Shown: positions 17,332-34,264, counted from the first letter of the stretch. The stretch: 64,000 nucleotides of DNA from Pantanalinema sp. (GCA_036704125.1 DATNQI010000019.1:971-64970), one strand, 5' to 3'. The notes: generated by a model not told the origin, from the letters alone. Program-made: numbers and translations.

Positions 17332-17406
17332 GTGTCTAACAAAAATATCCTTCGAGCCGCCCCCGGCGGCCATCGGTCGTAACATGCCTGGTTTTGTTAG
17401 GCGCTC
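17332..17406 (+). repeat. REP/MITE-like palindromic intergenic element, copy A
   Basis: ~75 bp with terminal inverted repeats CTAAC(A/G)AAA…TTT(T/C)GTTAG and an internal GCCGCCCCCGGCGGC hairpin. It is ~80% identical to the reverse complement of 34187..34264 and starts 2 bp after the CYTH stop. Confidence 0.7.
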
Positions 17407-17443
17407 TTAGTGAATACCCGGTAGCCAACCCACCTCCTTCCGA

Positions 17444-18137
17444 GTGACTGGGAGTAGGGACTCCTCCTGTTGGGTATTATTGCCTGATACTTTTGCCCCT
17501 TCGGGCCGATCGTTCGTAGCTGAGCCTTTGTCGTCGCCAACAGAGCGCGCGCCTGCCGAGATCATGGCCCACGGCAACGGGTTGGCGCTTGGTTGCTACG
17601 TGGGATCCGAGAAGGTCACGGCGGATGACGAACCTTTTGGTCGGAAGATGCGGAGACCGATCGTCTTGCCGGTAGAACAATATTTCGAGAGCGCCCGCCT
17701 CAAGGCGCTCATGCCAGAGAATCAGAGGAGGCTGGGGTATGGCTCGTGAAGACTATTTTGCTGCTGAGGAACCATTTGTGCAGGCGTCGCCTGCACAAAT
17801 GAAAATGCCCGCTGATTACGGCAAGGTGCTCGATGGCCTCAAGGCCAAGGAGCGCGACCTGGAGCGTGGGCTCCTGGCTCACCTCAAGGACTTCTACCTC
17901 TCGCTCGTGGACGACAAGCTTCGCCATCCCGCCGATCAGCCGAGCATCGGTCTGATCCTTTGCAAAGAGCGAAACAAGCTGATCGTCGAGTATGCCTTCC
18001 GCGATATCCGCAAGCCGATGGGGATTGTGGCATACGAGCTGTTCGAGCAGTTGCCGGAGCAACTTCAGAACGCACTGCCAAGCGTGGAAGATCTCGAGCG
18101 AGGCATCGGGGAGGACAGAGGGGAGATCGTCGAATGA
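17444..18137 (+). pseudogene. degraded YhcG/DUF1016 PD-(D/E)XK nuclease gene (frameshifted N-terminus, nuclease core deleted)
   Basis: The 3' ORF 17739..18137 encodes …KERDLERGLLAHLKDFY|LSLVDDKLRHPADQPSIGLILCKERNKLIVEYAFRDIRKPMGIVAYELFEQLP…LPSVEDLE, matching the YhcG C-terminus (…HPDDQPTIGLLLCK.KNK.V.EYAL…KPIG.A.YEL…LPSIEELE). The ~55-aa nuclease core that normally sits between them is absent, the upstream part is in another frame, and local GC is lower. Confidence 0.65.
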
Positions 18138-20749
18138 CCCGGGTCTTATCGCGCGCGCTGCCTGAAGCTGCCTTGCTCGCGGCCTCGGCGCACCGCGTCG
18201 TCACCCCCAACGAGCGGGCGGCAAGGGCCCTCGGGGTCGAGCCCTGTTCGCTGCAGGGGCTGGCGACGAACATTCTCTCGGAGGCGGGTTTTGCGATCGC
18301 CTCCCCGCTACTTGCGGTGCGCCTCTTCAGGCAGGCCGCCGCGAGCCTGGGCGAGGCCCCCGATCTGGCCGTGACCATGGCTGCGACGGTGCGCGAGCTG
18401 TTCCGCACGGGGGCCGACCTGGAAGCCCTCGTTTCCTCTGCACCGCCCCGCGCCGCCAGGGTGGCGCGCCTTGCCTTCGCCTACCGCTCGGCCTTGCGCG
18501 CGAAGCGCCTGGTGGACGATGCCGAGTGCCTGCGCGTGGCGGCAGGGCGGGTGGAGGGCACACAAGTCCTGCTCGTGGCGGGTTACCCGCGCCTTGGCGA
18601 AGACGAGGTCGCCTTCCTCGACGCGATCGCAGGGCCCGCCTCGCGCGTCCACCTCCCGAACACCGGCGAGGCCCTCTTCTTCGAGAATGCCCTGGTGGCC
18701 GATTCCCTGGAGGCGCGCGGCTGGATGGTGGAGCGCCCGGAGGGCGCAAGGCCGTTCACCGGGCGCTACCTGGCGCCGGCCTTCGCACCGGTCCCGCCGC
18801 GGGCCTATCGCTACGCCAACCTCGAGGCCGAGGTGCGCGGGGCGCTCGCGCGCCTCAAGGTCCTCTTGAACAAGGGGATGCGCCCGGATCAGGTGGCTCT
18901 GGTCGCACGTGACGATGTGGCCTACGGCCCGATGGTCATGGCGATCGCCTGGGAGTACGGCCTGGACATCGGCGCCTTCTACGCGGTGCCCCTCGCCGCG
19001 ACCCACGTTGGCGCCTGGCTGCGCCTTGCGATGGAGGTCGTGAATGGCGCCTTCCCCTATGAGACGACGGCGCGGCTGCTTGGCCATCGGCTCTCGGAGC
19101 GCCTGTCGCCCGAGGTCTGGGGCCAGGTCAGGAAGGGCCACCCGGTTGGCCTGGACGCATGGGTTGGCGTTTGCCCCGAACTGGGCCTGCTCGCATGGCC
19201 CGAGCGCGCAAGCAGGGCCGGATGGCGGCACCTGTTGCAGCAGATGCTCGATGGCTTCGACGTCTCGGAGCGCGCCGGCCGTTCGCCGCGCGAGGTGCTG
19301 GCGCTAGGCAAGCTGCACGAAGGGCTCGACACCCTTGCGCAGCCCGGGGACGAGACGCTGAGCCGGCATGGCTTCGAGGCCGAGCTGGTAGATTTGCTCA
19401 GCCTTCTCTCGGTGCCCGCCCATCCCGACGCGAAGGGTGTCGCCCTGCACACGCCGCTCTCGCTCTACGGGGCACGCTATCGCCACCTCATGGTGCTCGG
19501 GATGGCGGAGGGGCACTTCCCCGTGCGCGTCGAGAACGACCCGGTGCTTGACTTCCATGAGCGCAGGGCCCTCGAAGCGCTGGGGTGTCGTCTCGAAGGC
19601 GCAGCCTCGGCCGCGCGCCGCGAGGCTCTCTCGTTCTGGGCGTTGTTGCAAGTGGCCACCGAGGGCCTGGAGCTGTCGTATGCCGAGCTGGCGAACGGGG
19701 AGGCGCTGCTCCCTAGCCCCTACCTCGCGGATCTCGCCGCGGCCCTCGCGGATCCGCCCTCCGTTCCCGCGTGCAGCCCCGAGGAGTCGCGTCCCGCCCG
19801 CCTGCGAGGCGCGTACTGCGACGATCCGGTCTTGCCCTTCGCGCTCCACTCCCATCGCGTCGAGTGGGGCCGCGAGGCTTCGCCTGAATACGACCATTTC
19901 GACGGGGTTCCCGGCGTGCCGGTGGACCCGGCGACACGCCGCTTCAGCGCGTCCCAGCTCGTGACCATCGGCCAGTGTCCCTTCAAGTGGTTTGCCCAGC
20001 GCCTCTTGCGCCTGGCGGATCCCGAGGAGGTCGAAGGCGAGCTGAGCCCGGGGCTGCGGGGCACCCTCTTTCACCGGGCGCTGGAGCTTGCGGTCGAGGG
20101 GGCCTTGCCGCTCTTGGCCCCCCGTGCCCACGTCCTCTCGCGCCTCGACGAGGCCTTCGCTCGAGCCGAGGTCGAGTTGCAGGTCCAGGCCGTGAGCGCA
20201 TGGACCGCGCAGCGTGACTTTCACCTGAAAACCCTGCGCGCCGCGGTGGAGGCCCCGGGCTTCGTGGCCGACGGTGCGGCCATCGTCCAGGTCGAGGGCA
20301 GGTTCACGGGCCGCGCCTTCGGCCTGAACTTCATCGGGTACGTGGACCGGATCGATCGCACCGACGACGGGCTGGTGTTCGTCGACTACAAGACCTCCTC
20401 CTCGCCGCCCAAGGGGGCCAAGGACGACGAGGGCAAGCCCAAGGTGGATGTGCAACTGCCGCTCTACATGGAGGTGGCGGCCCCCGCCCTCTTCCCGGGC
20501 GAGCCGGTGGCAGGGGCGCACTACTACTCTTTGACCAAGGGCGAGGTCCTCAAGAAGGCCGTCCCGAGCCCCGGCGACCTGGAGCGGCTGACCGGCAAGG
20601 TGAAGGCCCATCTCGAAGCGGGAAGCTACCCGGTGGCGCCCGACGTAGACGAGGCCTCGTGCCTGTATTGTGACCTGGCGCTGGTCTGTCGCTCGGGGCC
20701 GCGCCTGGCTCGCAAGCAGATGGGTGGAGAGGAAAACACGAACGCATGA
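18134..20749 (+). CDS. AddB-like RecB-family nuclease (PD-(D/E)XK with C-terminal Cys cluster), helicase-nuclease complex subunit B-like
   Basis: C-terminal nuclease motifs (…GYVDRIDRTDDGLVFVDYKTS…) and a Cys cluster (CLYCDLALVC) sit on an AddB-like inactive N-terminal region. ATG 18134 overlaps the upstream stop and is translationally coupled to the downstream helicase (ATGA at 20746). Confidence 0.7.
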   Translation: MTRVLSRALPEAALLAASAHRVVTPNERAARALGVEPCSLQGLATNILSEAGFAIASPLLAVRLFRQAAASLGEAPDLAVTMAATVRELFRTGADLEALVSSAPPRAARVARLAFAYRSALRAKRLVDDAECLRVAAGRVEGTQVLLVAGYPRLGEDEVAFLDAIAGPASRVHLPNTGEALFFENALVADSLEARGWMVERPEGARPFTGRYLAPAFAPVPPRAYRYANLEAEVRGALARLKVLLNKGMRPDQVALVARDDVAYGPMVMAIAWEYGLDIGAFYAVPLAATHVGAWLRLAMEVVNGAFPYETTARLLGHRLSERLSPEVWGQVRKGHPVGLDAWVGVCPELGLLAWPERASRAGWRHLLQQMLDGFDVSERAGRSPREVLALGKLHEGLDTLAQPGDETLSRHGFEAELVDLLSLLSVPAHPDAKGVALHTPLSLYGARYRHLMVLGMAEGHFPVRVENDPVLDFHERRALEALGCRLEGAASAARREALSFWALLQVATEGLELSYAELANGEALLPSPYLADLAAALADPPSVPACSPEESRPARLRGAYCDDPVLPFALHSHRVEWGREASPEYDHFDGVPGVPVDPATRRFSASQLVTIGQCPFKWFAQRLLRLADPEEVEGELSPGLRGTLFHRALELAVEGALPLLAPRAHVLSRLDEAFARAEVELQVQAVSAWTAQRDFHLKTLRAAVEAPGFVADGAAIVQVEGRFTGRAFGLNFIGYVDRIDRTDDGLVFVDYKTSSSPPKGAKDDEGKPKVDVQLPLYMEVAAPALFPGEPVAGAHYYSLTKGEVLKKAVPSPGDLERLTGKVKAHLEAGSYPVAPDVDEASCLYCDLALVCRSGPRLARKQMGGEENTNA

Positions 20750-23307
20750 GTCTCACGCCGGAACAGGAACGCGCCGCCCATGCCCCCGCCAGCGTGTCGG
20801 TGACGGCGGGGGCGGGCACGGGCAAGACCCACATGCTCACCGCGCGCTACCGTCATCACCTGGAAGCGCACGGCCTCTCGCCGCTCGAGATCGTGGCCGT
20901 CACCTTCACCAAGAAGGCCGCCGCCGAGATGCGATCGCGCATCCGGGAAATGGTCGCAACCTCGATGCAGGCCACCCCCGACCTGGTGGCGGAGCTCGAG
21001 GCCGCTCCCATCAGCACCCTGCACGTGCTCGCAGCGCGCATCTGCCGCGAGCACCCCGAGGCCGCCGAGGTCCCGCCCGACTTCGCTGTGCTCGATGAGC
21101 TGGAGGGCAAGCTGTGGCGAGAGGAGCGGATCGCCGAGCTGTTCACGGCGCTGCCCGAGACGATTCTCGAGGCGGTTCCCTTCTCGCTCCTGGACCCCGC
21201 CATCCGGGCGTTCCTCGACGATCCCTGGACCGCGCAGCGGGCACTGAGGCAGGATCCCGGCGCCTGGGCCGGCATGGCGCGCGAGGCGCGAAAGGAGGCC
21301 GCCGAGGCCCTGTTCGCGGATGAGACCTGGACGCAGACCGTCGGTTCGGTGCGCTCCCTTGTCGGTCCCGAGGGGGATGCGATCGAGAACACCAGGCGCT
21401 CGGCCCTTTCAGGCCTGGAATCGCTCGAGTCGGCGCACCAGGCGGGCACGAGCTTGCGTCAGGCGCTCGAGGCCCTTCAGGCCTTGCCGATGCGGGGCGG
21501 ATCCAAGAAGAACTGGGGCGAAGAGAAATTCGAGGCCGTCAAGGTGGCCCTCAAGGCGCTGCGCGAACTCGTCGGGGATGCTCTGAAGGCCGGGCTCCTC
21601 ACCCTCGAGCTGGGCGAGGCCGATCGCGTCTTGGCCGATCTCTTGCCTCTCCTGAGGGAGGCTTACGCCCTGGCCACGGCGCACATGGCCCGAGCCAAGC
21701 GAGAGGCCAAGGTGCTGGATTTCAGCGACCTGGAGCTCGGGGCCCTGCGCGCCCTCGGCCAGCTCGAGGTCGTGGCCTACTACGCCGCGCGCTGGAAGGC
21801 GTACTTGGTGGACGAATTCCAGGACACCAACCCGGTCCAGGCCGAGCTGCTCGAGCGCCTCACGGGAGGGGCGATCCTCACGGTGGTCGGCGACGAGAAG
21901 CAGGCCATCTACGGCTTCAGGCGGGCGGACGTGGCGGTCTTCCGGCGCTTTCGCGCTCGCATCGTGGCCGAAGGCGGCCTGCATGTCTCGTTGACTAAGA
22001 GCTTCCGCACTCACGGGGAACTGCTGGCCCCCCTCAATCGGCTTTTCGAGCCCGTCCTGGGCGAGCTGCACCAGGCGCTCGTCGCGACGCGGCAGGAGCA
22101 TCCGGCAGGGACGCCCGTGGTGGTCGCTTTTTCCGTCGCAACGGACAAGGAGTTGCACAAGGGTGTGGACAAGTCGGCGCGTCAGCGATCCGAGGCGAAG
22201 CGCCTCGCGCGGCAGCTCAGGGAGCTGCTGGACGCGGGTGCCCTCGTCCTCGACAAGCCCAAGTGCGCGTTGCGCCCCATCCGGCCCGGGGACGTGGCCA
22301 TCCTCGCGCGCACCTGGGAGCCGCTCGAGGTCTACGGCGAGGCGCTCGCCGCGGAGGGCATCCCGTTCGTGCATGCCGGGGGCGGAAGCCTGATGGATAC
22401 CCGCGAGGCGAGGGACGGCTGGGCCTTGCTGCGCTTCTTGGCGAGTCCCGAGGACGACCTGGCCCTGGTCGCGGTGCTGCGCAGTCCCTTCTTCGCCCTG
22501 AGCGATCGCGCCCTGCTCGGCTTCGCCGCAGCCCTGCCCGCGGCCGGCGGCTACTGGCAGGCCCTGAAGGCGCTCGAGAACCCGTCCGCCGAGTGGGGCA
22601 GGGCGAGGGATATTCTCGGCCCCCTGCTCAGGACCGCACGCGCCGAGTCCGCGAGCCGGGCCCTGCAGGAGGTGGATCGGTACTGCGGCTACACGGCGGT
22701 GCTCGCGAACCTGCCCAATCCGGTGCGGCGCCTGGCGGACTGGCGAGCGTTCCTCGACTTCGTGCGGGGCCTGGAGGGCGACGGGACCGATCTCTTCCCC
22801 CTGGTGCGGCGCCTGCGCCGCTTGCTGGATGCCGAGGTGAACGTGCCACGCCCGTCCCTGGAGGCCCGGGATGCGGTCTCGCTCATGACCGTCCACGCCT
22901 CCAAGGGCCTGGAGTGGCCGCTGGTGGTGGTGCCTGACCTGGCGCGCTCGGCGCCTGCGGGGCGCGATCGCGTCCTGCTGGACGCCGAGCGGGGCGTGGC
23001 CCTGGGCCTGGGCAAGGAGCTGGAAGGAAGCGGCGATCCTGCCCTCTTCACCATCCTGAAGCAAGAGCAGCTCGCGCGCGAGGCGGCCGAGGCGAGGCGG
23101 GTGATGTACGTGGCGATCACCCGGGCGCGAGACTACCTCATGCTCACCTCCACCGATCCCAGGGGCGGCAGCATGGACTTCCTCTCCCCCGGATTCGCCG
23201 CAGCGGGGCTCGTCGTCGAGGCGGCACCCTTCGAGGCGGAGGATGCCCTGCCCCCGGAGCCTCGACTTCCGCCTCCGCCCGAGCCGCCTGAGAGCCACCT
23301 CTTCTGA
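20746..23307 (+). CDS. UvrD/PcrA-family SF1 helicase (AddA-like but lacking a C-terminal nuclease domain)
   Basis: Walker A (GAGTGKTHML) with motifs I–VI of UvrD-like helicases (…VDEFQDTNP…, …SFRT…, …VHASKGLEWP…VMYVAITRAR…). The protein ends after helicase domain 2A with a Pro-rich tail. Confidence 0.8.
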   Translation: MSLTPEQERAAHAPASVSVTAGAGTGKTHMLTARYRHHLEAHGLSPLEIVAVTFTKKAAAEMRSRIREMVATSMQATPDLVAELEAAPISTLHVLAARICREHPEAAEVPPDFAVLDELEGKLWREERIAELFTALPETILEAVPFSLLDPAIRAFLDDPWTAQRALRQDPGAWAGMAREARKEAAEALFADETWTQTVGSVRSLVGPEGDAIENTRRSALSGLESLESAHQAGTSLRQALEALQALPMRGGSKKNWGEEKFEAVKVALKALRELVGDALKAGLLTLELGEADRVLADLLPLLREAYALATAHMARAKREAKVLDFSDLELGALRALGQLEVVAYYAARWKAYLVDEFQDTNPVQAELLERLTGGAILTVVGDEKQAIYGFRRADVAVFRRFRARIVAEGGLHVSLTKSFRTHGELLAPLNRLFEPVLGELHQALVATRQEHPAGTPVVVAFSVATDKELHKGVDKSARQRSEAKRLARQLRELLDAGALVLDKPKCALRPIRPGDVAILARTWEPLEVYGEALAAEGIPFVHAGGGSLMDTREARDGWALLRFLASPEDDLALVAVLRSPFFALSDRALLGFAAALPAAGGYWQALKALENPSAEWGRARDILGPLLRTARAESASRALQEVDRYCGYTAVLANLPNPVRRLADWRAFLDFVRGLEGDGTDLFPLVRRLRRLLDAEVNVPRPSLEARDAVSLMTVHASKGLEWPLVVVPDLARSAPAGRDRVLLDAERGVALGLGKELEGSGDPALFTILKQEQLAREAAEARRVMYVAITRARDYLMLTSTDPRGGSMDFLSPGFAAAGLVVEAAPFEAEDALPPEPRLPPPPEPPESHLF

Positions 23308-23312
23308 GAACG

Positions 23313-23347
23313 ACCAGGGGCCCGGCGAGTCTCGCCGGGCCCCTGGT
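23313..23347. terminator. bidirectional terminator hairpin between helicase gene and convergent clostripain-like gene
   Basis: Perfect inverted repeat accaggggcccggcgag-tc-tcgccgggcccctggt. Confidence 0.6.
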
Positions 23348-23358
23348 GTGTTCGGGAT

Positions 23359-24636
23359 TTACTTCTTGAGGTAGCTCTGCAGGAACTTGGCCCACTGGGT
23401 GGTGCCGAAGATCTGGTGCGAACCGTCGCTGTAGGCGGCGTTGTAGGTCTCGAGGCCGAAGTAGATCTTGAGGCCGGTGAAGGCGCCGCCGGGCAGGCGG
23501 TTGGTCATGCTCAGGACGACCGAGCGCGTCAGCTGGGTGTTCACTTCCTTGGCGAGGGCCTTGGTCGTGGCGGGCAGGCTCGACTCCTGGATCAGGTTGC
23601 AGAAGAGGCCCAGGTCGATGGCGTCCTCTTCGCCGCTGCCGGTGGCCGAGAGGTTCGCGGCCTTGTTGACGACGCCGGCGAGGGCGGCCTTGAAGGCGGG
23701 GGTCGAAAGGCCGGCCTGCAGGTCGGTGGCCAGCGCGTTGACGCCGGGGACGACGCGATCCTTGAGCTTCTGGAGGTCGATCGACGAGAGGGTCGACTCC
23801 TGGTTGGCCTTCTTGTACCAGGCGCTGTAGGTCTCGACGATCTTGCTCGAGAACTCGCGGGGGTACATGCCGGGGGTCTTCGAGAGGGCCGAGGTCAGGG
23901 ACTGGTAGTCCCAGCCGTCGCCGGGCTCGACCTTCTCGGACGAGACCAGGAAGTCCGCCACGTCGCGCAGCTGATAGGCCGTCTCGGCGTGGCCCAGAAG
24001 GCAGGTGTCGAAGCCGATCACGTCGAACTTGGCCTTGCTCGACACCTTCTGGGTGGCGCGCCACAGGTCGACCAGGTTGAGGTTGTTGCCGCTCTGATCG
24101 TCCCAGCAGAAGGACTTGAGGTGGTTGGGCGAGGCGAAGGCGCCGCCGCCGTGGTTCCACATGACGAGCATCGAGCGCTTGGAGGGATAGTTCTTGGTGC
24201 CCCAGTTGATGAACTTCTCGAGGGTCGCCGACGAGCCGGTGTCGACTTCCTTGGAGGCCTTGGGGATGACCGCGCCGCCGTCGTCGATGACGGGCGAGAC
24301 GAGGGTGCTGTTCACGCCCTTGGGGTCGTTCTTGATCTCGACGATGCGCGAGTCGCCTTCGCGGTCCTGGTCGACGAGGGCCACGACCTTCACGCGCTCG
24401 GAGGTCAGGCCGGCTTCCATCTCGTTGAGGTCCTTGGCGGCGAAGGGCGAGAGGTTGTTGTCACCCGCGATGTAGACGAAGACCGTCCAGTCCGAGGCGC
24501 CCGCCTTGGAGCCCTTGGTGCCCTGGGCGTTCATGTCCCCGGCGCCGCCGCCGAACAGCCCCGCGGGCATCACGCCGCAACCGGTCACCATGAGCGAAGT
24601 GGCAAGGCTGAGAAGCAGGGCGGATTTCTTGAACAT
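23359..24636 (-). CDS. clostripain-family (C11) cysteine peptidase lipoprotein
   Basis: Lipobox signal (LMVTGC), the C11 hallmark motifs (VFVYIAGDNNL, MWNHGGG, IGFDTCL), and RBS GGAGGT before the ATG. Confidence 0.75.
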   Translation of the reverse strand: MFKKSALLLSLATSLMVTGCGVMPAGLFGGGAGDMNAQGTKGSKAGASDWTVFVYIAGDNNLSPFAAKDLNEMEAGLTSERVKVVALVDQDREGDSRIVEIKNDPKGVNSTLVSPVIDDGGAVIPKASKEVDTGSSATLEKFINWGTKNYPSKRSMLVMWNHGGGAFASPNHLKSFCWDDQSGNNLNLVDLWRATQKVSSKAKFDVIGFDTCLLGHAETAYQLRDVADFLVSSEKVEPGDGWDYQSLTSALSKTPGMYPREFSSKIVETYSAWYKKANQESTLSSIDLQKLKDRVVPGVNALATDLQAGLSTPAFKAALAGVVNKAANLSATGSGEEDAIDLGLFCNLIQESSLPATTKALAKEVNTQLTRSVVLSMTNRLPGGAFTGLKIYFGLETYNAAYSDGSHQIFGTTQWAKFLQSYLKK

Positions 24637-24696
24637 GGTGACCTCCGAAGTGGTTGGGTTGGTGCCTGTTTGAAGGTTATCGGTTGTGCGAGGGTG

Positions 24697-24719
24697 TAAC
24701 TGTCGTTAAAAAACAGTTA
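24697..24719. promoter_or_regulatory. perfect palindrome TAACTGT-N9-ACAGTTA (operator-like) upstream of clostripain-like gene
   Basis: 7-bp inverted arms around an AT-rich centre (cgttaaaaa), 60-83 bp upstream of start 24636. Confidence 0.4.
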
Positions 24720-24740
24720 AAAGTGCTGCGAGGCGGATCC

Positions 24741-24774: not shown

Positions 24775-24790
24775 GCGCGGGGCGGGATTC

Positions 24791-25699
24791 TTACAGGTTC
24801 TTGAGCATGTGCATGTAGGCGTCGGCGGCTTCCTTGAGCAGTTGCGCCTGCTGGAAGAGCGCGGAGTTCTCGCCGGCCTGGCCCTTGGTGGCGGTGAGCT
24901 GCTCGGTCAGCGTGATGATCTCGGTGACCGGCGCCCGGGTGGCCGCAGCGTGCGCGAGCCCTTCGTAGAGGGTCGCGAGCTGCGACTGGATCTGCTCGAT
25001 CCCGGTCGTCAGCTGGTTGACCGCCGAGACGAGGTGGGTCAGGGTCTCGTTGCGATCCGCGCTGGTCGCGAGGCGGACGGCGCCGCTCGGGGCCACCGGG
25101 GCCATCGCCGGGACGAACGGGTTTGCCTCGACCGCGATCGCAGCCGGCACCGACGGGGCCTGCGGGATCGAGACGATCGGGGCGGGAGCCGGCGCATAGA
25201 CCGGCTCGACGCGAGCGGGTTCGGGGGCCGGGGCTGCGAACACGGGCTCGACGGGCGGGGCTGCGAACACGGGCTCGACGGGCGGGGCCGCGAACACGGG
25301 CTCGACGGGCGGGGCCGCGAACACGGGCTCGACGGGCGGTGCCGCGAACACGGGAGCCGCCGGCGGTGCCGCGAAGACCGGATCGGCCGCAGGAGCCTCG
25401 AAGGCCGGATCGCTGGTGAAGCTCGCGATCAGATCGTTGATCTCGGTGTCGACCGAGGGGCTCGCGAACGGATCGAGCGAAGCGGCATCGAAGGCGGGGG
25501 GCTGGGCGGCGGCCGGTGCGGCTGGAGCCTCGAAGGGGAGCCCCTGGGGCTCGAAGCTGGGCGCCTGCGGCTCGAAGCCGACCGGCATCGGGTCGTTGGC
25601 GGTCTGGTAGAGGGCGAGCAGGTCGTTCAGGGTCGCGTCGTCGCCGCTGCCGGCGGGATCCTGGCCCCCCCAGTAGTTGCCCGTCTGGCCGGCGGGCAT
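24791..25699 (-). CDS. Pro/Ala-rich repeat protein with conserved C-terminal coiled-coil-like domain; function unknown
   Basis: Five tandem PVFAAPPVE repeats and a C-terminal …LTHLVSAVNQLTTGIEQIQSQLATLYEGLAHA… region. ATG 25697-25699 is suggested; GTG at 25735 is an alternative. It lies immediately downstream of lepA on the same strand. Confidence 0.5.
   Translation of the reverse strand: MPAGQTGNYWGGQDPAGSGDDATLNDLLALYQTANDPMPVGFEPQAPSFEPQGLPFEAPAAPAAAQPPAFDAASLDPFASPSVDTEINDLIASFTSDPAFEAPAADPVFAAPPAAPVFAAPPVEPVFAAPPVEPVFAAPPVEPVFAAPPVEPVFAAPAPEPARVEPVYAPAPAPIVSIPQAPSVPAAIAVEANPFVPAMAPVAPSGAVRLATSADRNETLTHLVSAVNQLTTGIEQIQSQLATLYEGLAHAAATRAPVTEIITLTEQLTATKGQAGENSALFQQAQLLKEAADAYMHMLKNL
25233..25380. 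repeat. in-frame 27-bp tandem repeat (about 5 copies) inside the PA-rich gene
   Basis: The unit ggctcgacgggcggggccgcgaacacg is repeated with minor variation and encodes PVFAAPPVE. Confidence 0.85.
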
Positions 25700-25776
25700 C
25701 CCTTCGGAGGGGTTGTTGAGAAACGGCAAGTCCACGTTCTGATTCCGCCTTTCGTGTTTTGATGACCCCGCGGGGG

Positions 25777-27582
25777 CTACTCGCCGAGCTTCAGGACGGC
25801 CATGAAGGCTTCCTGCGGAATTTCGACGCGACCGACCTGCTTCATGCGCTTCTTGCCTTCCTTCTGCTTCTCGAGCAGCTTGCGCTTGCGGGAGATGTCG
25901 CCCCCGTAGCACTTGGCGAGCACGTTCTTGCGCATGGCGCTGATCGTCTCGCGGGCGACGACCTTGTTGCCGATCGTCGCCTGGATGGGGACCTCGAACA
26001 TCTGCCGGGGGATCAACTCCCGGAGCTTCTCGGCGAGCTGTCGACCGACCGACTGGGCGCGATCCTTGTGGATGATGGCCGAGAGGGCGTCGACGATCTC
26101 ACCTGCCAGCTGGATGTCCAGCTTGACCAGCCTGGACTCCCGGTAGCCGACCAGCTCGTAGTCCATGGACGCATAGCCCTTGGTCCTGCTCTTGAGCTGA
26201 TCGAAGAAGTCCGAAACGAGTTCCGCAAGCGGAATCTCGTAGGTCAACTGGGTCCGGTCGGTGCTGAGGTATTCCATGTTGATGAATACCCCACGCTTCC
26301 CTTGCGCTAACTCCATCACGGCGCCCACGTAGTCGGAGGGGGCGATGACGGAGACCTTGACGTAGGGCTCCTCCATCTTCTCGATCTTGACCGGATCGGG
26401 GAGGTTGGTGGGATTGTCGACCATGACGACCTCGCCGCCGATCTTGGTGATCCGGTAGACGACCGAGGGGGCCGTGGCGAGCAGGGTCAGGCCGTACTCG
26501 CGCTCGAGGCGCTCCTGGATGATCTCCATGTGGAGCAGGCCCAAAAAGCCGCAGCGGAAGCCGAAGCCGAGCGCAGTCGAGCTCTCGGGCTCCCACTGAA
26601 GCGAGGCGTCGTTGAGGGTCAGCTTCTCGAGGGCCTCGCGCAGCTGGGGGTAGTCCTCGGCGCTGGTCGGGTAGAGACCGCAGAAGACCATGGGCACGGC
26701 CTGCTTGTAGCCGGGCAGGGCCTCCTTGGCGGGGTTGTTCGCCAGGGTGATGGTGTCGCCCACCCGCGCGTCCTGGACGTTCTTGATGGCGCCTGCCAGG
26801 TAGCCGACCTCGCCGATGCCGAGCTCCTGGACCGGGGTCTGCTTGGGGCGCAGGACGCCCAGCTCGGTGATGGTGATCTGGGCGCCGGTCGCCGCCATGC
26901 GGATGGTGTCGCCGACCTTGAGCTTGCCGTTGAAGACGCGGAAGAAGACGACCACGCCCCGGTAGGCGTCGTAGTACGAGTCGAAGATGAGCGCCTGCAA
27001 AGGAGCGGCCGGATCGCCCTTGGGCGCGGGGATCTTGGCGACGATCTGCTCGAGGATGTCCTGGATGCCGATGCCCGCCTTGGCCGAGGCGAGCACCGCG
27101 TCGGAAGCATCGAGGCCGATCACGTCCTCGATCTCCTTCTTGACGCGCTCGGGCTCGGCACCCGGCAGATCGATCTTGTTGAGGACCGGGACGATCTCGA
27201 GGTCGTGCTCGAGGGCCAGGTAGACGTTGGCGAGGGTCTGGGCCTCGACGCCCTGCGAGGCGTCCACCACCAGGATCGCGCCCTCGCAGGCGGCCAAGGA
27301 GCGCGAGACCTCGTAGGTGAAGTCCACGTGGCCCGGGGTGTCGATCAGGTTGATGACGTAGTCCTGGCCGTCGTTCGCGCGGTAGTCGAGGCGCACGGCC
27401 TGGGCCTTGATGGTGATGCCGCGCTCGCGCTCGATGTCCATCGAGTCGAGCAACTGCTCCTCCATCTCGCGGGAGGCGACCGTGCCCGTGAACTCCAGGA
27501 GCCGGTCGGCCAGGGTCGACTTGCCGTGGTCGATGTGGGCGATGATCGAGAAATTCCGGATGCGATCCGTCGGGACGGTCAT
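25777..27582 (-). CDS. lepA: elongation factor 4 (translational GTPase LepA)
   Basis: N-terminus [29 protein letters not shown]… with G1-G5 motifs and the LepA-specific C-terminal domain. Confidence 0.95.
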
Positions 27583-27783
27583 GGGGGCTTCCCTTCTACC
27601 TGTGTCGAGACCTCGAAGCGTCCATTATAGCGCGGAAAGCCGCCGCGAGCGAACCGAATCGGATCCCTGAATTTTAGCGTCGTCTTAAACTCTGCTTAAG
27701 AAAGATCCCCGGCGATCCCTGCGATAGTTCTTGCAGATTTCATAAACATTTCGTCCCGTCCATCTTCGGAAGGAGCGTCCGGT

Positions 27784-28581
27784 ATGCGTCACACCAAGGC
27801 CCTGTCCACTCTGCTTGCCGTCTCGGCTGCGCTGACCCTGCTTGCGGGCTGCGGCATGACCCCCGGCGCGAGCGTCACGTCGCAGACCGAGGCGGTCGGC
27901 TTCGATGCGCTCGCCTCCAAGACCCTCAAGGAAGGCTTCAAGCAGGTCCACGAGGCGATCTTCAGCAAGATCGACACCAACGGCGACAAGTACATCGACG
28001 AGTACGAGGCCGGCCCCTACTTCAACCTGATCAAGGAGTTCCCCAAGGCCGACAAGACCAAGAGCGGCAAGACCGGCAACGGCAAGATCTCGCGCAGCGA
28101 GTTCCTGAAGTACGCCACCGCCGGCGGCTTCCTGACGGGCAAGGATAGCCCGGTCGCGTTCCTGAACCGGATGCGCGCCTTCCTCGCCACGGCCTTCAAC
28201 CGCCTCGACCAGCGTGAGCCCGGCAGCGGCCTGTTCGGCAAGGGCGACGGTTACCTCTCGACCGAGGAGCTCAGCGACAAGGCGCTCGCCAAGCTGGGCC
28301 TGGGCTTCGCCTACGACAAGATCCACGTCCGGGTGACGATCCCGAGCTTCGATCCCGCCGACATCTCGGCCTCGGACAAGACCGGCGACGGCAAGCTCAG
28401 CCAGGCCGAGTTCGAGGACCTGTACATGACCTCGGTGGTCAAGGCCATCAACCCCAACTACGTCCCCGGCGGCAACACCCCCGCCCCGGCCCCGGTCGAT
28501 CCGGCCCCGGCCCCGGCCCCGGCGCCCGCCGACCCCAACGCCCCGGCGCCCGCTCCTGCCGTCGAGTGGTGGGGCCTCTAG
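27784..28581 (+). CDS. EF-hand calcium-binding lipoprotein with C-terminal PAPAPA repeat
   Basis: Lipobox (LLAGC) with two EF-hand loops (DTNGDKYIDEYE; DKTGDGKLSQAEFE) and a C-terminal (PA)n tail. Confidence 0.65.
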   Translation: MRHTKALSTLLAVSAALTLLAGCGMTPGASVTSQTEAVGFDALASKTLKEGFKQVHEAIFSKIDTNGDKYIDEYEAGPYFNLIKEFPKADKTKSGKTGNGKISRSEFLKYATAGGFLTGKDSPVAFLNRMRAFLATAFNRLDQREPGSGLFGKGDGYLSTEELSDKALAKLGLGFAYDKIHVRVTIPSFDPADISASDKTGDGKLSQAEFEDLYMTSVVKAINPNYVPGGNTPAPAPVDPAPAPAPAPADPNAPAPAPAVEWWGL

Positions 28582-28591
28582 ACCTCACTCG

Positions 28592-28632
28592 AAAAAGGAC
28601 CGCCCCCGTTCGGGGCGGTCCTTTTTTATTGC
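28592..28632 (+). terminator. rho-independent terminator
   Basis: aaaaaggaccgcccccg-ttc-ggggcggtccttttttatt. Confidence 0.9.
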
Positions 28633-28762
28633 TTTTGCAGCTGCCCAGGAAACGATGACGGATTCATGACACAACGCCAACCCGGCCATGATACGGCGTC
28701 CGTATCATTGAAGGAGGGCCGAGACGGCCCTCTTGTCCCGTCGATGAAAGGCAGGTTGCATC

Positions 28763-30028
28763 TTGAAACTGGACGATTTCCGGCTCACGCTCGGCTCGAA
28801 GCAGTACGTTCCCATCGTCATCGGCGGGATGGGGGTCGACATCTCCTCGGCCGATCTGGCGCTCGAGGCGGCCCGCCTCGGGGGGATCGGCCACATCTCC
28901 GATGCGCTCTCCGCAGCGGTCTCGGATCGGCGCTTCAAGACCACCTTCCTGCGGGACAAGGCCGAGCTGTACCGGGATCACCGCGAGATGGAGCACAAGC
29001 GCGACGTCCAGTTCGACCTCTCGGCCGTGCGCGAGGCCACCCTGCGGCACGTCGGCGGCACCATGGACGCCAAGCGCGGCGATGGCGCCATCTTCGTCAA
29101 CATCATGGAAAAGCTCACCATGAACGCCCCCAAGGCGACCCTCAAGGCGCGGCTGGAGGCCTCCATGGACGCCGGGGTGGACGGCATCACCCTGAGCGCC
29201 GGCCTGCACCTGGGCTCGCTCGAGCTGGTCGCCGATCACGCCCGCTTCCGCGACGTCCAGTTCGGGATCATCGTCTCGTCGGCCAGGGCGCTCAACCTCT
29301 TCCTCAAGCGCGCCAAGCGCCTGGATCGCATGCCGGACTTCGTGGTGGTGGAGGGCCCCCTGGCGGGCGGGCACCTGGGCTTCGGCCTTGACGAGTGGCC
29401 CCGCGCCAACCTCAAGGACATCGTCAACGAGGTCATGGCCTTCCTCGCCAAGGAGGGGCTCTCCATCCCGGTCATCCCCGCGGGGGGCATCTTCACGGGC
29501 ACCGACGCCGTCGAGTACCTCCAGGCCGGGGCCGCGGCCGTCCAGGTGGCGACCCGCTTCACCGTCACCCGCGAGTGCGGCCTGCCCGATTCGGTCAAGC
29601 AGGTCTACCTGGGGGCCGAAGAGGCGGACGTGGAGGTCAACACCCAGTCGCCGACCGGCTATCCCATGCGGATGCTCAAGCAGTCGCCCGCCATCGGCTC
29701 CAACATCAAGCCCAACTGCGAGACCTTGGGCTACCTGCTCGACTCCGAGGGGCGCTGCAGCTACCTCGAGGCCTACAACGCGACGCCCGTCGACGAGAAG
29801 GGACGCAAGCAGCCCGTGCGGGAGCGCACCTGCCTCTGCACCCACATGAACACCTTCAAGGTCTACACCTGCGGCCACTACGTCTACCGCCTCAAGGAGA
29901 CGACGGTCCTCGAGGCGTCGGGGCGCTACCACGTGCCGAGCGCCGAGCACGTCTTCAGGGACTACCAGTACAGCGAGGACCACAAGATCGCCCTGCCGAA
30001 GCTCGATGGCTTGGTCGTTCCCGCCTAA
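28763..30028 (+). CDS. nitronate monooxygenase / FabK-like FMN TIM-barrel oxidoreductase with Cys-rich C-terminal extension
   Basis: N-terminal PIVIGGMG and AGGHLG motifs of the NMO/2-nitropropane dioxygenase family, plus a C-terminal ~120-aa region with 6 Cys. The start is TTG 28763 because there is no nearby ATG in frame. Confidence 0.6.
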   Translation: MKLDDFRLTLGSKQYVPIVIGGMGVDISSADLALEAARLGGIGHISDALSAAVSDRRFKTTFLRDKAELYRDHREMEHKRDVQFDLSAVREATLRHVGGTMDAKRGDGAIFVNIMEKLTMNAPKATLKARLEASMDAGVDGITLSAGLHLGSLELVADHARFRDVQFGIIVSSARALNLFLKRAKRLDRMPDFVVVEGPLAGGHLGFGLDEWPRANLKDIVNEVMAFLAKEGLSIPVIPAGGIFTGTDAVEYLQAGAAAVQVATRFTVTRECGLPDSVKQVYLGAEEADVEVNTQSPTGYPMRMLKQSPAIGSNIKPNCETLGYLLDSEGRCSYLEAYNATPVDEKGRKQPVRERTCLCTHMNTFKVYTCGHYVYRLKETTVLEASGRYHVPSAEHVFRDYQYSEDHKIALPKLDGLVVPA

Positions 30029-30051
30029 GGGATCGGCTTCTCGCCAAAACA

Positions 30052-30092
30052 GCCCCTCGCCCCGACCGGGGCGAGGGGCGCGGCTTTTCTTC
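30052..30092. terminator. terminator hairpin between convergent NMO-like and guanylate-kinase-like genes
   Basis: gcccctcgccccg-accg-gggcgaggggc followed by gcggcttttcttc. Confidence 0.65.
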
Positions 30093-30639
30093 AGCCGCCG
30101 ATGAGCCGGGCGACCGTCTCCAGCACCTCCGCGTAGGGCGGGGTGGTCGAGACCCGGTGGTCGCAGGCGCTGGCCTGGCCGTTCTCCAGGGCGATGAGCC
30201 CCAGGCGCCGCTCGACCTCGTCGGGCGTGCTGCCCCGCGCTTCCATGCGCTCCTTGAGGGTCTCGGGCGAGGGGCTCTCGAGGAAGATCGCCCGCGCCTT
30301 GCCGGGGGCCAACAGGTCGCGCAGGTGCTGGACGCCCGCCATGTCGAGGACGCACACCAGGTCGTGCCCCCCGTTCTCGAGGAACTGCCCGGCCGGCAGG
30401 CCGTAGCGCCGGCCGCCGTAGGTGGTGGACTCCAGCAGCTTGCCCGACGCCAGCAGGAAATCGAACTGCTCGTCGCTGACGAAGTAGTAGTCGATGCCTT
30501 CCTGCTCGCCGTTTCGCGGGGCGCGGGTGGTGCAGGTGACGGCGCGCTTGAGACCCGGCACGCGCCGGGGCAGGTCCTTGGCGAGGCTGGTCTTGCCCGT
30601 TCCCGACGGGCCGATCAGGATCCATACGTTGCCGGCCAT
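30091..30639 (-). CDS. guanylate kinase family protein
   Basis: P-loop [10 protein letters not shown] and a Gmk-like [19 protein letters not shown]…YGGRRYG pattern. Confidence 0.7.
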
Positions 30640-30740
30640 GGGGTCTCCTTACAAAGGAACTTGATGAGATCCCCCCACCCCCAACCCCGCCCCACCGGGG
30701 GGCGGGGAGTCTGGTTGGCATGGGACTGCCCTTACCATAC

Positions 30741-30783
30741 CGCCCAAAAGGCGAGGGGGGAAGGCGTCAGCCTTCCCCCCTCG
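30741..30783 (-). terminator. rho-independent terminator for M16 peptidase gene
   Basis: gaggggggaaggc-gtca-gccttcccccctc with a U-run (gccttttggg) downstream on the minus strand. Confidence 0.7.
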
Positions 30784-30797
30784 AAACCCTCCAGGGC

Positions 30798-33524
30798 TTA
30801 CTTGCCCTGGTAGGGGCCCGCGATCGCGAGGCCCGCGGCGTCGGGCTTGACGATCTTCCTGGCGGCCTGGTTGACGGCTTGCAGGGTGACGCCCTGGATC
30901 AGCTTGGGGTAGCGGCCCCAGAAGTCGAGGCCCAGGCCGTAGCGCTCGATCGAGCTGAGCGAGCCGGCCATCCCGGAGTTGGTCGCGAGGTCCACCGCGC
31001 TGCTGCCGATGAAGGCCGTCTTGGCCTTGGCCAGCTCGTCGGCGGTGACGCCCTTGGTGACGAACTTGCCGAGCTCGCGCTTGAGGGCGTCGAGGGCCGT
31101 TGGGACGTTGGCGGGGTTGACCGTGACGGTCGCGGTCCAGGGGCCCGGGCCGAAGGTGGGCCGGATGCTGGAGCGCGCGTCGTAGGTCAGGCCCATCTCG
31201 TCGCGCAGCTTGATGCCGAGGCGCGCCGACAGGGGGCTGCCGCCGAGCACGAAGTTGGCGATGCGCACGGCGTAGTAGTCCGGGTCCATCCGGCGGACGG
31301 TGGTGGGGTTGCCGTAGACGATGGCGACGTTGGTCTGGTCCATCATCGGGATGATGGTCTTGGAGGCCTTGGCCGGCATGCCGTCGGGGATGGAGACGGC
31401 CGCGACCGCGACCTTGGGCCAGGCGGCGAAGCGCTGCTCGAGCTTCGCGACCACGGCGTCGGCGCTCACGTCGCCCACCACCGCGAGCACGACGCCGTTG
31501 GGGCCGTAGTGCTTGGCATGGAAGGCCCTGAGGTCCTCGGGGGTGATGCTCTCGATGGCCTTGATCTGCTGCTGGGGGTCCAGGTCGTAGTAGGGGTGAC
31601 CCGGCTGGTAGATCGCGTGGTTGAAGGCGCGTCCGGCCCGGGTGGCGGGCTGCTCCTCGGCCTGCTTGATCGAGGTGATCCAGTTGGCCTTGAGCTTGGC
31701 GAGCTCGCTCTCGGGGAACGCGGGGGTCATCATTTCCTCGGCGAGCACGTCGAGGGTGCGGTCCAGGTCCTTGGAGAGGGTCGAGCCGCTGATGCCGGTG
31801 GTCTCGGTGCCGCCCGAGAAGCCGACGCTCGCGCCGACGAACTCGAGGTCACCCGCGATTTTGAGCTTGTCGCGCTTGGTGGTCCCTTCCTCCAGCATGG
31901 AGGCGGTCAGAGAGGCGAGGCCCTCCTTGCCCTCGGGGTCGTGGACCCCGCCGGTGCGGACGAAGCCGTCGATGGCCACGGTGGGGTTGTTCTTGTTCTG
32001 GAGCACCAGGACGGTCATGCCGTTCGACAGGACGCGCCGCACCGGCACGGTGAGCTTCTGCTCCTTGACCGGGCGCTTCTCGAAGTCCATCAGGGGAAGG
32101 GGCTTGACCGGGGCGTTGTTCGCGACGGCCTTGCCGCTGCCGGCATTCTTGGGCTGGGGGCGCACCGGGCCGTCGGGGGTGGCGACGTAGTACCCGATGG
32201 TCAGGTTGTCGTCGTGGAGGTAGGTCTTGGCGACGCGCTGAATGTCGGCGGGGGTGACCTTCTTGACCTCGTCCAGGAGGGCGAAGGCCCGCTGCCACTT
32301 GCCCGCCATGGCCTCGTACTCGCCGAGGTTGATGGCGAGACCCTCGGTGCCGTTGTTCTGGAAGATGTAGCCCGCCTCGGCCTGGTTCTTGGCCTTCTGG
32401 AGCTCCTGGAGCTCGACCGGGGTGGTCTTGAGCTTCTCGAGCTCGGCGCGCATGGCCTGTTCGGCGTCCTCGTGCTTCACGCCGGGGCGCACGGTCATGC
32501 CGATGCGGAACAGGGAGGGATCGCGCTGGAGGCCGCAGTCGGCCCAGGCGTCGGTGGTGATCTCCTTGTCGACCAGGGCCTGGTAGAGGCGCGAGGTCCG
32601 GCCGCTGCCCATGAGGGTCTCGAGGACCTTGAGGGCGGCGATGTCCTTGTGGTTGACCGAGGGGATGTGCCAGCCGGTCTGGACCAGGTTGGTCTCGCCG
32701 CGCTTGCGCAGGGTGAAGCGGCGGATGCCCTCCTGGGGCTCCTCGGCGGTGTACATGGGCGGGATGTGCTTGGCGGCGGGGATGGCGCCGAAGTACTTCT
32801 CGATGAGCTTGATGGCGTCCGCGCTCTTGAAGTCGCCGACCAGCACCGCCACCGCGTTGTTGGGGTGGTAGAAGGTGTTGTAGAACTCCTTGAGGCGCGC
32901 GGTGGGGACGCCCTCGACGTCGCTGCGCCAGCCGATGGTCGAGTGGTGGTAGGGGTGGGCCTGGTAGGCCTGGGCGGTGATCGCCTCGTAGAGGTTCATG
33001 ACGGGGCTGCTCTCGCCGCGCTCCATCTCGTTGCGCACGACCGTCATCTCGCTCTGGCGCTCCGAGTCGAGGATCAAGGAGTTGCGCATGCGGTCGGCCT
33101 CGAGCCGGATGCCCATCTCGAGCTTGTCGCTCGAGTAGGTCTCGAAGTAGTTGGTCCGGTCCGTCCAGGTGGTGGCGTTGAAGTCCGCCCCGTTGCGCTG
33201 CAGGAGCTGCGAGATCTGGCCCTTGCCGAGGTTCTTGGTGCCCTTGAACAGCATGTGCTCGAGCATGTGGGTCGAGCCCGTCCAGCCCGTGGCCTCGTTG
33301 CGCGAGCCGACCTTGTAGGTGACGACCCAGGTCACGACCGGCGCGGCGTGGTTCTCCTTGAGGATGACCTTCATGCCGTTCTTGAGGGTGTACTCCTGGA
33401 TCGGGCCCGCGATCGTCTGGGTGCTCTTGATGGCGGGAGCGGCCAGGGCGTAGGCCGGCATGACGGGCACCGTCAGGGCGGTGCCGAGCGCCAGGGCCAG
33501 GGCGGCGAGGGGGTGTCGATTCAT
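30798..33524 (-). CDS. secreted tandem M16 (insulinase/pitrilysin-like) zinc peptidase
   Basis: Signal peptide from ATG 33524, an inverted zinc motif HMLEHMLF in the first M16 unit, and a second M16-like unit (two active plus inactive domain pairs) for ~909 aa. The upstream part of the track ORF is low-complexity and non-coding-like. Confidence 0.8.
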   Translation of the reverse strand: MNRHPLAALALALGTALTVPVMPAYALAAPAIKSTQTIAGPIQEYTLKNGMKVILKENHAAPVVTWVVTYKVGSRNEATGWTGSTHMLEHMLFKGTKNLGKGQISQLLQRNGADFNATTWTDRTNYFETYSSDKLEMGIRLEADRMRNSLILDSERQSEMTVVRNEMERGESSPVMNLYEAITAQAYQAHPYHHSTIGWRSDVEGVPTARLKEFYNTFYHPNNAVAVLVGDFKSADAIKLIEKYFGAIPAAKHIPPMYTAEEPQEGIRRFTLRKRGETNLVQTGWHIPSVNHKDIAALKVLETLMGSGRTSRLYQALVDKEITTDAWADCGLQRDPSLFRIGMTVRPGVKHEDAEQAMRAELEKLKTTPVELQELQKAKNQAEAGYIFQNNGTEGLAINLGEYEAMAGKWQRAFALLDEVKKVTPADIQRVAKTYLHDDNLTIGYYVATPDGPVRPQPKNAGSGKAVANNAPVKPLPLMDFEKRPVKEQKLTVPVRRVLSNGMTVLVLQNKNNPTVAIDGFVRTGGVHDPEGKEGLASLTASMLEEGTTKRDKLKIAGDLEFVGASVGFSGGTETTGISGSTLSKDLDRTLDVLAEEMMTPAFPESELAKLKANWITSIKQAEEQPATRAGRAFNHAIYQPGHPYYDLDPQQQIKAIESITPEDLRAFHAKHYGPNGVVLAVVGDVSADAVVAKLEQRFAAWPKVAVAAVSIPDGMPAKASKTIIPMMDQTNVAIVYGNPTTVRRMDPDYYAVRIANFVLGGSPLSARLGIKLRDEMGLTYDARSSIRPTFGPGPWTATVTVNPANVPTALDALKRELGKFVTKGVTADELAKAKTAFIGSSAVDLATNSGMAGSLSSIERYGLGLDFWGRYPKLIQGVTLQAVNQAARKIVKPDAAGLAIAGPYQGK

Positions 33525-33768
33525 GCGGCGGTGTCCTCTCTCGAAAGTCCAGGCGCGAGCCGTGGAATGGAAGGCGTTTGCCATAGGGGCGGTTTGTCGC
33601 CGGGTGTACGAACGATGGCCCATGTTATCACGCCCCTTGCCGGGACGCAGGGCCGCCCGGGGTGGTCGCTTCCCCACGGCTGTGCTATGATGCGTACTGT
33701 TGCTTGTCAACATTGCACACGAGGAAACAACCCAGTAAGCCGTCTCCTGATCGTTGGAGGATCTGCCC

Positions 33769-34179
33769 ATGGGAACTCCCGAGCAACACGCGTCCTTCCA
33801 CCTCGGTCTCACCTGGTCCGAGGCGGTGCCGCTGCTCTCGCGCCTGATCACCTCCCCGGCCCCGCTGGATGGGAGCGATCGCGATCGCCTCCTGGCCGCG
33901 GCCGCGGCCTGCCGCCTCGCGCGCACCGAGCTCGAAACGGCCCACGAGCGCCATTCCCTTCTGCGTCTGGCCGCTCCGCTCTACTCGGAGGAGACCCTCG
34001 GCGAGGCCCTGCTCACCGCCGAGCGCGCCCTCGTCTCCCTGAGCCAGCCCATCGCCGGCGCCGAGCGCTTCATGCTCGCCTCGGGCCGCCTCCACTGGCT
34101 GTTCGAGTTCCTCTCGGACACCTGCAACCTGCTGCTGCGCGACGTGGCCCGCGGGACGCTGCCGCGAGCGGCGAGCTGA
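33769..34179 (+). CDS. hypothetical protein
   Basis: GGAGG lies 8 nt before ATG 33769 and codon usage is typical; no recognisable domain. Confidence 0.45.
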   Translation: MGTPEQHASFHLGLTWSEAVPLLSRLITSPAPLDGSDRDRLLAAAAACRLARTELETAHERHSLLRLAAPLYSEETLGEALLTAERALVSLSQPIAGAERFMLASGRLHWLFEFLSDTCNLLLRDVARGTLPRAAS

Positions 34180-34186
34180 TCCCTTA

Positions 34187-34264
34187 GAGCACCTAACGAA
34201 ACCAGGCATGTTACGACCATTGGCCGCCGGGGGCGGCTGGGTGGAGCAGTTTCGTTAGGTGCCC
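34187..34264 (-). repeat. REP/MITE-like palindromic intergenic element, copy B (inverted relative to copy A)
   Basis: Its reverse complement aligns to 17332..17406 with the core agccgcccccggcggcca..ggtcgtaacatgcctggttt and terminal IRs cctaacgaaac/gtttcgttagg. It starts 8 bp after a stop codon. Confidence 0.7.

Follow-up and report, generated by a model that had tools for sequence, protein, structure and literature searches.

The DNA analysed here is a stretch of 64,000 nucleotides (the window) from a metagenome-assembled genome (MAG) labelled Pantanalinema sp. (GCA_036704125.1, DATNQI010000019.1:971-64970). It carries two copies of a short palindromic element, one directly behind a gene for a CYTH-domain protein and the other, in inverted orientation, behind a gene for a hypothetical protein without a Pfam match (Table 1). 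Both copies are insertions, and the element is a previously undescribed family of MITEs (small transposable elements with inverted repeats at their ends) of the IS5 kind (ISAzba7-like, IS427/IS1031-type) in Sericytochromatia-like bacteria. A literature search for its end sequences or for ISAzba7 gave no relevant paper mentioning these ends.

Structure of the two copies

An earlier reading of the window (the original prediction) had described two inverted, related palindromic copies, and this description was borne out. Their 40-nt core, AGCCGCCCCCGGCGGCCANNGGTCGTAACATGCCTGGTTT, is present exactly once on each strand of the window and in none of 100 shuffles; the copies are 82% identical in a full-length alignment, and an independent repeat search recovered the pair as 66 nt with 86% complementarity. 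The existence of the copies therefore stands, and only their ends had to be corrected, to those given in Table 1 (77 and 78 bp). Likewise, terminal inverted repeats are present as predicted, with a length of 16 nt rather than 11 nt. They have the form GAGYRYCTAACRAAA(C), i.e., GAG(C/T)(G/A)(C/T)CTAAC(A/G)AAA(C), and a search of the window with the pattern of the 16-nt ends matched the four copy ends, one chance site with two mismatches, and nothing else. Throughout, orientation follows copy A, in which the CTGTTCC-type end comes first and the CCAGGCATG-type end last. The 16-nt repeats, GAGCGCCTAACAAAAC and GTTTTGTTAGGTGCTC, are present in all copies of the family that we found.

The proposed long hairpin with an inner GC-rich stem-loop was confirmed by folding, with energies of -31 to -43 kcal/mol; three of the four strands folded gave z-scores between -4.4 and -5.6. 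That such a stable, long hairpin forms on either strand is largely a consequence of the terminal inverted repeats. Closeness to stop codons was also correctly noticed, and the exact positions can now be given: copy A abuts the TAG of the CYTH gene and copy B lies 7 bp past a TGA. The surroundings had been described as unusually low in GC, which they are not; they are ordinary intergenic DNA, and the 16.8 kb between the copies have a GC content of about 0.64-0.72, as does the rest of the window. What had been suggested only as a check, target-site duplication, was found at both copies, each of which is flanked on both sides by a direct TTA.

Table 1. Coordinates of the MITE copies, their parts and the adjoining genes in the 64,000-nt window
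Feature	Position	Strand	Remarks
Empty target site CTAG	14388..14391		Overlapping stops of convergent GGDEF and methylase genes
CYTH-domain gene	16794..17330	+	Class IV adenylate cyclase-like, 178 aa; stop overlaps the copy A insertion site
Left target-site duplication TTA, copy A	17327..17329		Its TA and the element's first G form the CYTH stop TAG (17328-17330)
MITE copy A	17330..17406	+	77 bp; nhmmer E=3.7e-24; no counterpart at the orthologous site of L004
Left terminal inverted repeat, copy A	17330..17345	+	GAGTGTCTAACAAAAA; aligned with the ends of IS5-family insertion sequences
Inner GC hairpin, copy A	17356..17370	+	GCCGCC-CCC-GGCGGC
Right terminal inverted repeat, copy A	17391..17406	-	Reverse complement GAGCGCCTAACAAAAC, the same as the left end of the L048 insertion sequence (Sorangium-like)
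Right target-site duplication TTA, copy A	17407..17409		Homology with the empty site is continued by the adjoining GTGAATACCC
Hypothetical gene, 136 aa	33769..34179	+	Stop TGA at 34177-79; copy B starts 7 bp after it; orthologues also called as 136 aa
Left target-site duplication TTA, copy B	34184..34186
MITE copy B	34187..34264	-	78 bp; inverted relative to copy A; nhmmer E=8.4e-24
Terminal inverted repeat, copy B, CCAGGCATG-type end	34187..34202	+	GAGCACCTAACGAAAC
Inner GC hairpin, copy B	34223..34237	+	GCCGCC-GGG-GGCGGC
Second terminal inverted repeat, copy B	34249..34264	-	Reverse complement GGGCACCTAACGAAAC; A to G at position 2
Right target-site duplication TTA, copy B	34265..34267

Filled and empty sites in relatives

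Relatives were located by a search for homologues of the CYTH protein, and the proteins of the relatives compared are 83-90% identical to those of the window. The CYTH proteins of loci L004 and L005 (GCA_017744355.1 and a Logan assembly) are 90% identical and that of L006 is 86% identical, while L007, a Logan contig, is 100% identical to the window. At the CYTH stop, the homology between the window and L004 breaks off exactly at position 17330. The window reads caggcTTA(77 bp)TTAgtgaataccc, i.e., a second TTA followed by gtgaata, and the empty site of L004 reads caggccTAGTGAatgcc (core ggccTAgtgaatg); once the element and one TTA are removed, the two sequences are colinear, and the colinear part takes in about 32 bp from the neighbouring gene's 3' end. 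At the site of copy B, the window reads cccTTA(78 bp)TTAtcttaatcgaggg. The corresponding intergenic regions of L071 and L073 are shorter by exactly 81 bp (78 + 3), and homology restarts directly after the second TTA. From these precise empty sites, which lack the element and one TTA, both copies in the window are insertions.

The reverse case was found between the convergent GGDEF and methylase genes, where L004 reads ctgTTA(78 bp)TTAgcccc and the window reads aagCTAGccc; a decayed orthologous copy is present at this site in L006. As L004 is filled where the window is empty, and vice versa, the element has moved after these lineages split.

Convergent gene pairs in this lineage repeatedly share their stops within a CTAG, as seen for GGDEF/methylase and CYTH/MauG (window 14388-14391; L004 4534-4537), and these shared-stop sites are places where MITE copies sit in one lineage or another. 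In L004, L005, and L006, the gene convergent to CYTH encodes a CCP_MauG cytochrome c peroxidase. The window keeps only about 32 bp of the 3' end of that gene (17408-17439, 78% identical), and the remainder has been replaced by about 650 bp of unrelated, lower-GC DNA (region 17408-18137). This replacement directly adjoins copy A and carries an open reading frame (ORF) for a 132-aa YhcG_C protein (PDDEXK nuclease), 17739..18137, that overlaps the start of the addB-like gene.

A dispersed family with target-site duplications

The prediction of a dispersed repeat family was substantiated by copies in other genomes with unrelated flanks, so that the two copies in the window do not stem from a single duplicated segment. 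An exact 20-mer from the core was found on three contigs, which belong to two Candidatus Sericytochromatia MAGs; the three copies on them have flanks that are not related to those in the window. A 21-mer across the inner part of the end matched 19 metagenome loci. The assembly Ga0209979 accounts for 15 of them, on nine long contigs that add up to 2.59 Mb, and a CYTH homologue is encoded on one of the nine. A profile search of all DNA fetched gave 26 non-redundant copies, a number that, like the others, is a lower bound because the searches were seeded by exact 20-21-mers. Every copy is 76-78 bp long, below the limit of roughly 300 bp for a MITE, none is longer, and none leaves room for an ORF (26 of 26 non-coding). 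The copies in Ga0209979 have a mean identity of 95% among themselves and of 77% to copies of the window's clade, and this difference between and within subfamilies suggests that the family has recently spread in bursts within lineages.

An exact 3-bp duplication (TTA, TAA, and once TCA) flanks 11 of 24 independent insertions, for which P is about 3e-14 at a chance of 1/64 each. Of these 24 insertions, 19 have a T-N-A triplet on the left side and 16 have one on the right. The base 3' of the right triplet is usually G and that 5' of the left triplet usually C or T, giving a preferred site of approximately C/T-TWA-G.

Ends shared with IS5-family insertion sequences

When viral contigs were scanned with the 16-nt end, 42 matches were obtained; most were random, and two had an inverted partner. 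These two belong to insertion sequences (ISs): a Sorangium-like element of 889 bp in L048, with the left end GAGCGCCTAACAAAAC and TTA/TTA flanks, and an element of 900 bp in L044 with TAA/TAA flanks. Both encode DUF4096 and DDE_Tnp_1 in two overlapping frames, and their transposases match NCBIfam NF033580 (IS5 family transposase; transpos_IS5_3) with E=2.7e-42, that of L048 being 92% identical to a Sorangium transposase. Homologous ISs on plasmids were fetched by protein similarity alone, with no use of the end sequence. Among them, an Azospirillum element (L069), annotated as 'IS5-like element ISAzba7 family', is 852 bp long with the ends GAGTGCGTAACAAAACC / GAGCGCCTAACAGAACC and CTA/TTA flanks, and a Roseomonas element (L070), also of 852 bp, has the ends GAGCGCCTAACTAAACC / GAGCGCCTAACAGAACC and TTA/TTA flanks. 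Because these independently fetched homologues bear the same ends and TTA-type flanks, the ends of the MITE are, judged by sequence comparison, the signature ends of an ISAzba7-like clade of IS5 elements (about 850-900 bp, with a two-frame DUF4096 and DDE gene). The MITE is presumably mobilized in trans by an IS5 transposase.

GAG... ends and TTA (TAA) direct repeats are known from IS1237, a member of the IS5 family (IS427/IS1031 groups), and a three-nucleotide target has been described as common in the IS1031 group (PMC2516522).

Insertion at stop codons and proposed mechanism

The association with stop codons is real and extends to the whole family. For about 15 out of 25 copies, the distance to the stop of an ORF with high GC content at third codon positions is 0-3 bp, and several stand between convergent genes whose stops had overlapped in CTAG or TTAG. 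The window contains 124 TWA triplets outside the elements, of which only 42 fall in coding DNA, although this makes up 89% of the sequence; 68 are intergenic and 14 overlap stops. The position of the copies is mainly explained by the T-N-A target preference rather than by a role as terminators: the genome has 69% GC, TWA triplets are rare inside genes, and T-N-A covers the stop codons, hence insertions pile up there.

We propose that a transposase of the ISAzba7-like clade, supplied in trans, would bind both ends of the element and insert it by a 3-nt staggered cut at a T-N-A triplet, mostly TTA or TAA and preferably within C/T-TWA-G. The staggered cut would give rise to the flanking 3-bp duplication. 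T-N-A comprises TAA and TGA and their complements TTA and TCA, and a TA followed by the element's first G would read TAG. Surviving insertions would thus accumulate at stop codons, regenerate them, and be nearly neutral. With a stop restored by the duplication on either side, little cost would be expected of such insertions. The long hairpin that the element adds to transcript 3' ends may in addition have a downstream effect.

Strength of the case and alternative explanations

Taken together, we consider it very probable that the element is an IS5-type MITE with ISAzba7-like ends, moved in trans, whose T-N-A targeting places copies at stops. The original prediction had called the element 'REP/MITE-like', and the second half of this term is strongly supported by the inverted repeats, the 3-bp duplications, the three filled/empty sites, the dispersal, and the IS5-type ends.

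Several observations weigh against this interpretation. In eight of the 24 independent insertions the two flanking triplets differ by one base (often TTA versus TAA), and another five insertions lack a duplication; together this exceeds what simple decay should produce in a young subfamily. About 60% of copies are at stops, compared with about 17% of the non-coding TWA sites in the window that overlap stops. Target availability may therefore be only part of the explanation, and an extended target preference, selection against promoter insertions, or selection for 3'-end positions must contribute. Past the 16-17-nt ends, the similarity between the MITE and the ISs is weak: about 22 of 28 nt agree at the CCAGGCATG-type end only (Roseomonas and L048), and none further in. 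A full-length IS with these ends, a lone end, or an IS5 transposase was absent from 258 kb of related loci, and the best 120 transposase homologues, out of more than 5,900, included no Sericytochromatia entry. With the MITE-specific subterminal sequence, one scan found no match and another a single chance match, in a low-GC phage, and the two real ISs from the viral-contig scan belong to phyla other than that of the host. Since no autonomous partner was found in the host lineage, the argument for mobilization in trans is carried by the identity of the ends.

Mismatched flanking triplets, for example with TTA on the left and TAA on the right, are seen in the Ga0209979 loci L016, L023, L025, L017, and L018. 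They suggest that recombination between copies has exchanged flanks, or that cuts of 2 bp are made occasionally at TTAA.

The most serious alternative is an addition to the MITE origin rather than a replacement of it. The long hairpin, or the conserved inner GC hairpin, transcribed together with the upstream gene, may have been co-opted as an RNA 3'-end module that stops transcription, blocks 3' exonucleases or attracts RNase III, effects of which there are reports for REP, ERIC and Correia elements; copies next to stops would then have been selected. In favour of this, both strands can form stable hairpins, all copies but one retain the inner GC hairpin, and copies are denser at stop codons than are the non-coding TWA sites. 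The search for compensatory changes was also positive: GCCGCC-NNN-GGCGGC in the window's clade corresponds to GCCGAC-AC-GTCGGC in Ga0209979, i.e., a C:G to A:T change in the inner hairpin between subfamilies, although this is weak evidence because it represents one evolutionary event. There are also precedents of MITE hairpins that act on transcripts (PMC10969869). However, the outer hairpin arises automatically from the terminal inverted repeats, close relatives have empty orthologous sites, so that positions are not conserved, and the orientation relative to the upstream gene is even, with about 5-6 sense and 5 antisense copies. Neither hairpin is followed by a U-tract; GGCGGC is followed by CATCGG. 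Co-option of this kind is unlikely.

The original prediction had also offered the element as a terminator, an mRNA stabilizer or a small-RNA family. These roles found no support, given the missing U-tract, the lack of an Rfam match and the absence of an orientation bias. In particular, an intrinsic (Rho-independent) terminator was rejected, as no U-tract follows the GC hairpin and no terminator-like site was detected at either copy; promoter and terminator scans around both copies returned nothing at the elements. The whole window gave no Rfam match at the gathering score, and permissive Rfam searches around both copies gave only a chance miRNA match (E=0.48). The hairpin may have effects on mRNA 3' ends similar to those reported for Correia and ERIC (PMC10969869).

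Two more speculative readings can be derived from the position of the copies, 3'-end hairpin co-option and the targeting of stop codons as safe havens, and even jointly we regard them as rather improbable. According to the first, the family may be more than a neutral parasite: copies at stop codons, whose inner GC hairpin has been maintained across a compensatory change, may be kept as ready-made 3'-end hairpins that set mRNA ends or stability, and a REP-like function may have emerged from an IS5-type MITE in a deep-branching, non-photosynthetic cyanobacterial lineage. According to the second, a transposase with the extended C/T-TWA-G preference may effectively target stops, including the CTAG common to convergent pairs.

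The remaining alternatives would replace the MITE origin. Repetitive extragenic palindromes (REPs) spread by a RAYT (IS200/IS605-like Y1) transposase are likewise palindromic, extragenic and dispersed, with a GC-rich centre. However, the element is 76-78 bp long as compared with the 20-40 bp typical of REPs (PMC3733652), it ends in GAGC...GCTC instead of having a GTAG or CGTC head, it has 3-bp target duplications, which REPs lack, and its 16-nt inverted repeats are identical to DDE-type IS5 ends. Moreover, the copies are single rather than clustered, and no RAYT is found among the neighbouring genes. The REP half of the original term is thus to be dropped, and a RAYT-driven origin is highly improbable.

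A second possibility is that the copies are integron attC sites, which would mark the ends of gene cassettes after stop codons. The attC consensus consists of R'' (RYYYAAC) and R' (GTTRRRY), and GCCTAAC ... GTTAGGC at both ends of each copy fit it, a resemblance only. The size is within the range of attC sites, and the location just past ORFs would suit them as well. Nevertheless, each insertion consists of the 77-78-bp element and a 3-bp duplication, with no cassette ORF, and the copies are solitary, 17 kb apart, inverted and surrounded by housekeeping genes, with no integrase nearby. The stem is paired continuously through and past the R boxes and lacks an unpaired central spacer or extrahelical bases, nearly all copies have four more conserved bases (GAGC/GCTC) beyond the R boxes, and the same ends delimit transposase-encoding ISs. 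We hold an attC identity to be just as implausible as the RAYT-driven origin.

Chance similarity or a single segmental duplication, for which one could cite that the window itself shows only two copies, can be dismissed in view of 0 of 100 shuffles, the unrelated flanks and the more than 20 further copies in unrelated contexts elsewhere.

A composite transposon or genomic island bounded by the two copies was also considered and rejected as unlikely: each copy has its own duplication, the intervening 16.8 kb have a normal GC content, and the gene order is the same in relatives without the copies. The genes in between are housekeeping genes, among them an AddB/AddA-like nuclease-helicase pair, M16 peptidases and guanylate kinase.

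Other features of the window

Just past copy B (34268-34330), three lineages share about 40 nt (cgagggttattcaccccataagaaagatcccgg) with 100% conservation, although the surrounding intergenic DNA diverges. This segment, for which there is no Rfam match, could be the promoter or 5' leader of a gene for a 258-aa hypothetical (lipoprotein-sorting-like) protein.

Two perfect palindromes with 24-nt arms lie between genes at 1413-1465 and 9184-9232, and for one of the two these genes are convergent. In sequence they resemble neither each other nor the MITE, and both are probably terminator hairpins specific to their genes. At 25189-25431, tandem 27-nt units in at least seven copies lie inside a minus-strand ORF (24791..25912) and would encode a 9-residue protein repeat. 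A 300-nt direct repeat with 87% identity (57386-57685 and 57882-58181) extends over two small adjacent ORFs on the minus strand (57386..57871 and 57882..58241) that have the appearance of tandem paralogues.

It seems doubtful that the source MAG bears the right taxonomic label. A protein 100% identical to the CYTH protein is labelled 'MAG TPA: Pantanalinema sp.' at NCBI and other homologues are labelled 'Stenomitos sp.', whereas the DNA-level relatives that bear the MITE are labelled Candidatus Sericytochromatia. A GC content of 69% and the gene content fit Sericytochromatia.

Significance and comparison with known systems

The family is useful mainly for annotation, and it marks recent transposition in the poorly studied Sericytochromatia-like genomes, in which the presence or absence of copies can serve as a marker for the comparison of strains and lineages. 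It also illustrates that a palindrome of this sort behind a stop codon is not necessarily a terminator or a small RNA. In fact, it is a clean example of how a simple T-N-A preference in a very GC-rich genome steers a transposon onto stop codons. It does not amount to a new kind of biology unless the hairpin proves to be co-opted.

The closest known elements are the ISAzba7-like IS5 elements (L048, L044, L069, and L070), which share with the MITE the first 16-17 nt of both ends (GAGCGCCTAACAnAAC), the GAG termini and the TTA/TAA flanking triplets. They differ from it in having a two-frame DUF4096 and DDE gene, whereas the MITE is a non-coding element of 78 bp with a GC-hairpin interior. A parallel exists in eukaryotes, where Tourist-type MITEs (PIF/Harbinger) also make a 3-bp TTA/TAA duplication and depend on an IS5-related DDE transposase that acts in trans on short non-coding derivatives. 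In contrast to the present family, these have unrelated ends and a eukaryotic host, and they cannot be mobilized without a second protein, which is Myb-like. That the IS5 family and Harbinger are related has been shown (PMC12730594). Among bacterial elements, IS1237 and ISLxx6 of Leifsonia xyli are alike in their GAG... terminal repeats and TTA (TAA) 3-nt direct repeats (PMC2516522), but the rest of their terminal repeat reads GAGGTGGTTTCAG..., and they are autonomous 899-bp elements of an actinobacterial host.

Correia elements (CREE) of Neisseria, ERIC, Nezha, Chunjie, and MITEPye1 resemble the new family in size, in being non-coding and multi-copy, and in their inverted repeats and target duplications (PMC10969869, PMC11578231). 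These bacterial MITEs are also mostly intergenic, can be folded into long RNA hairpins, and have ends that resemble those of an IS family (PMC10969869, PMC11578231). Correia elements differ from the new family in duplicating TA and in having documented promoters, IHF sites and RNase III processing. The new family further differs from all of these MITEs in its sequence family, its parent family and its host, here Sericytochromatia-like Cyanobacteriota, and its tight coincidence with stop codons results from a T-N-A target in a genome of 69% GC.

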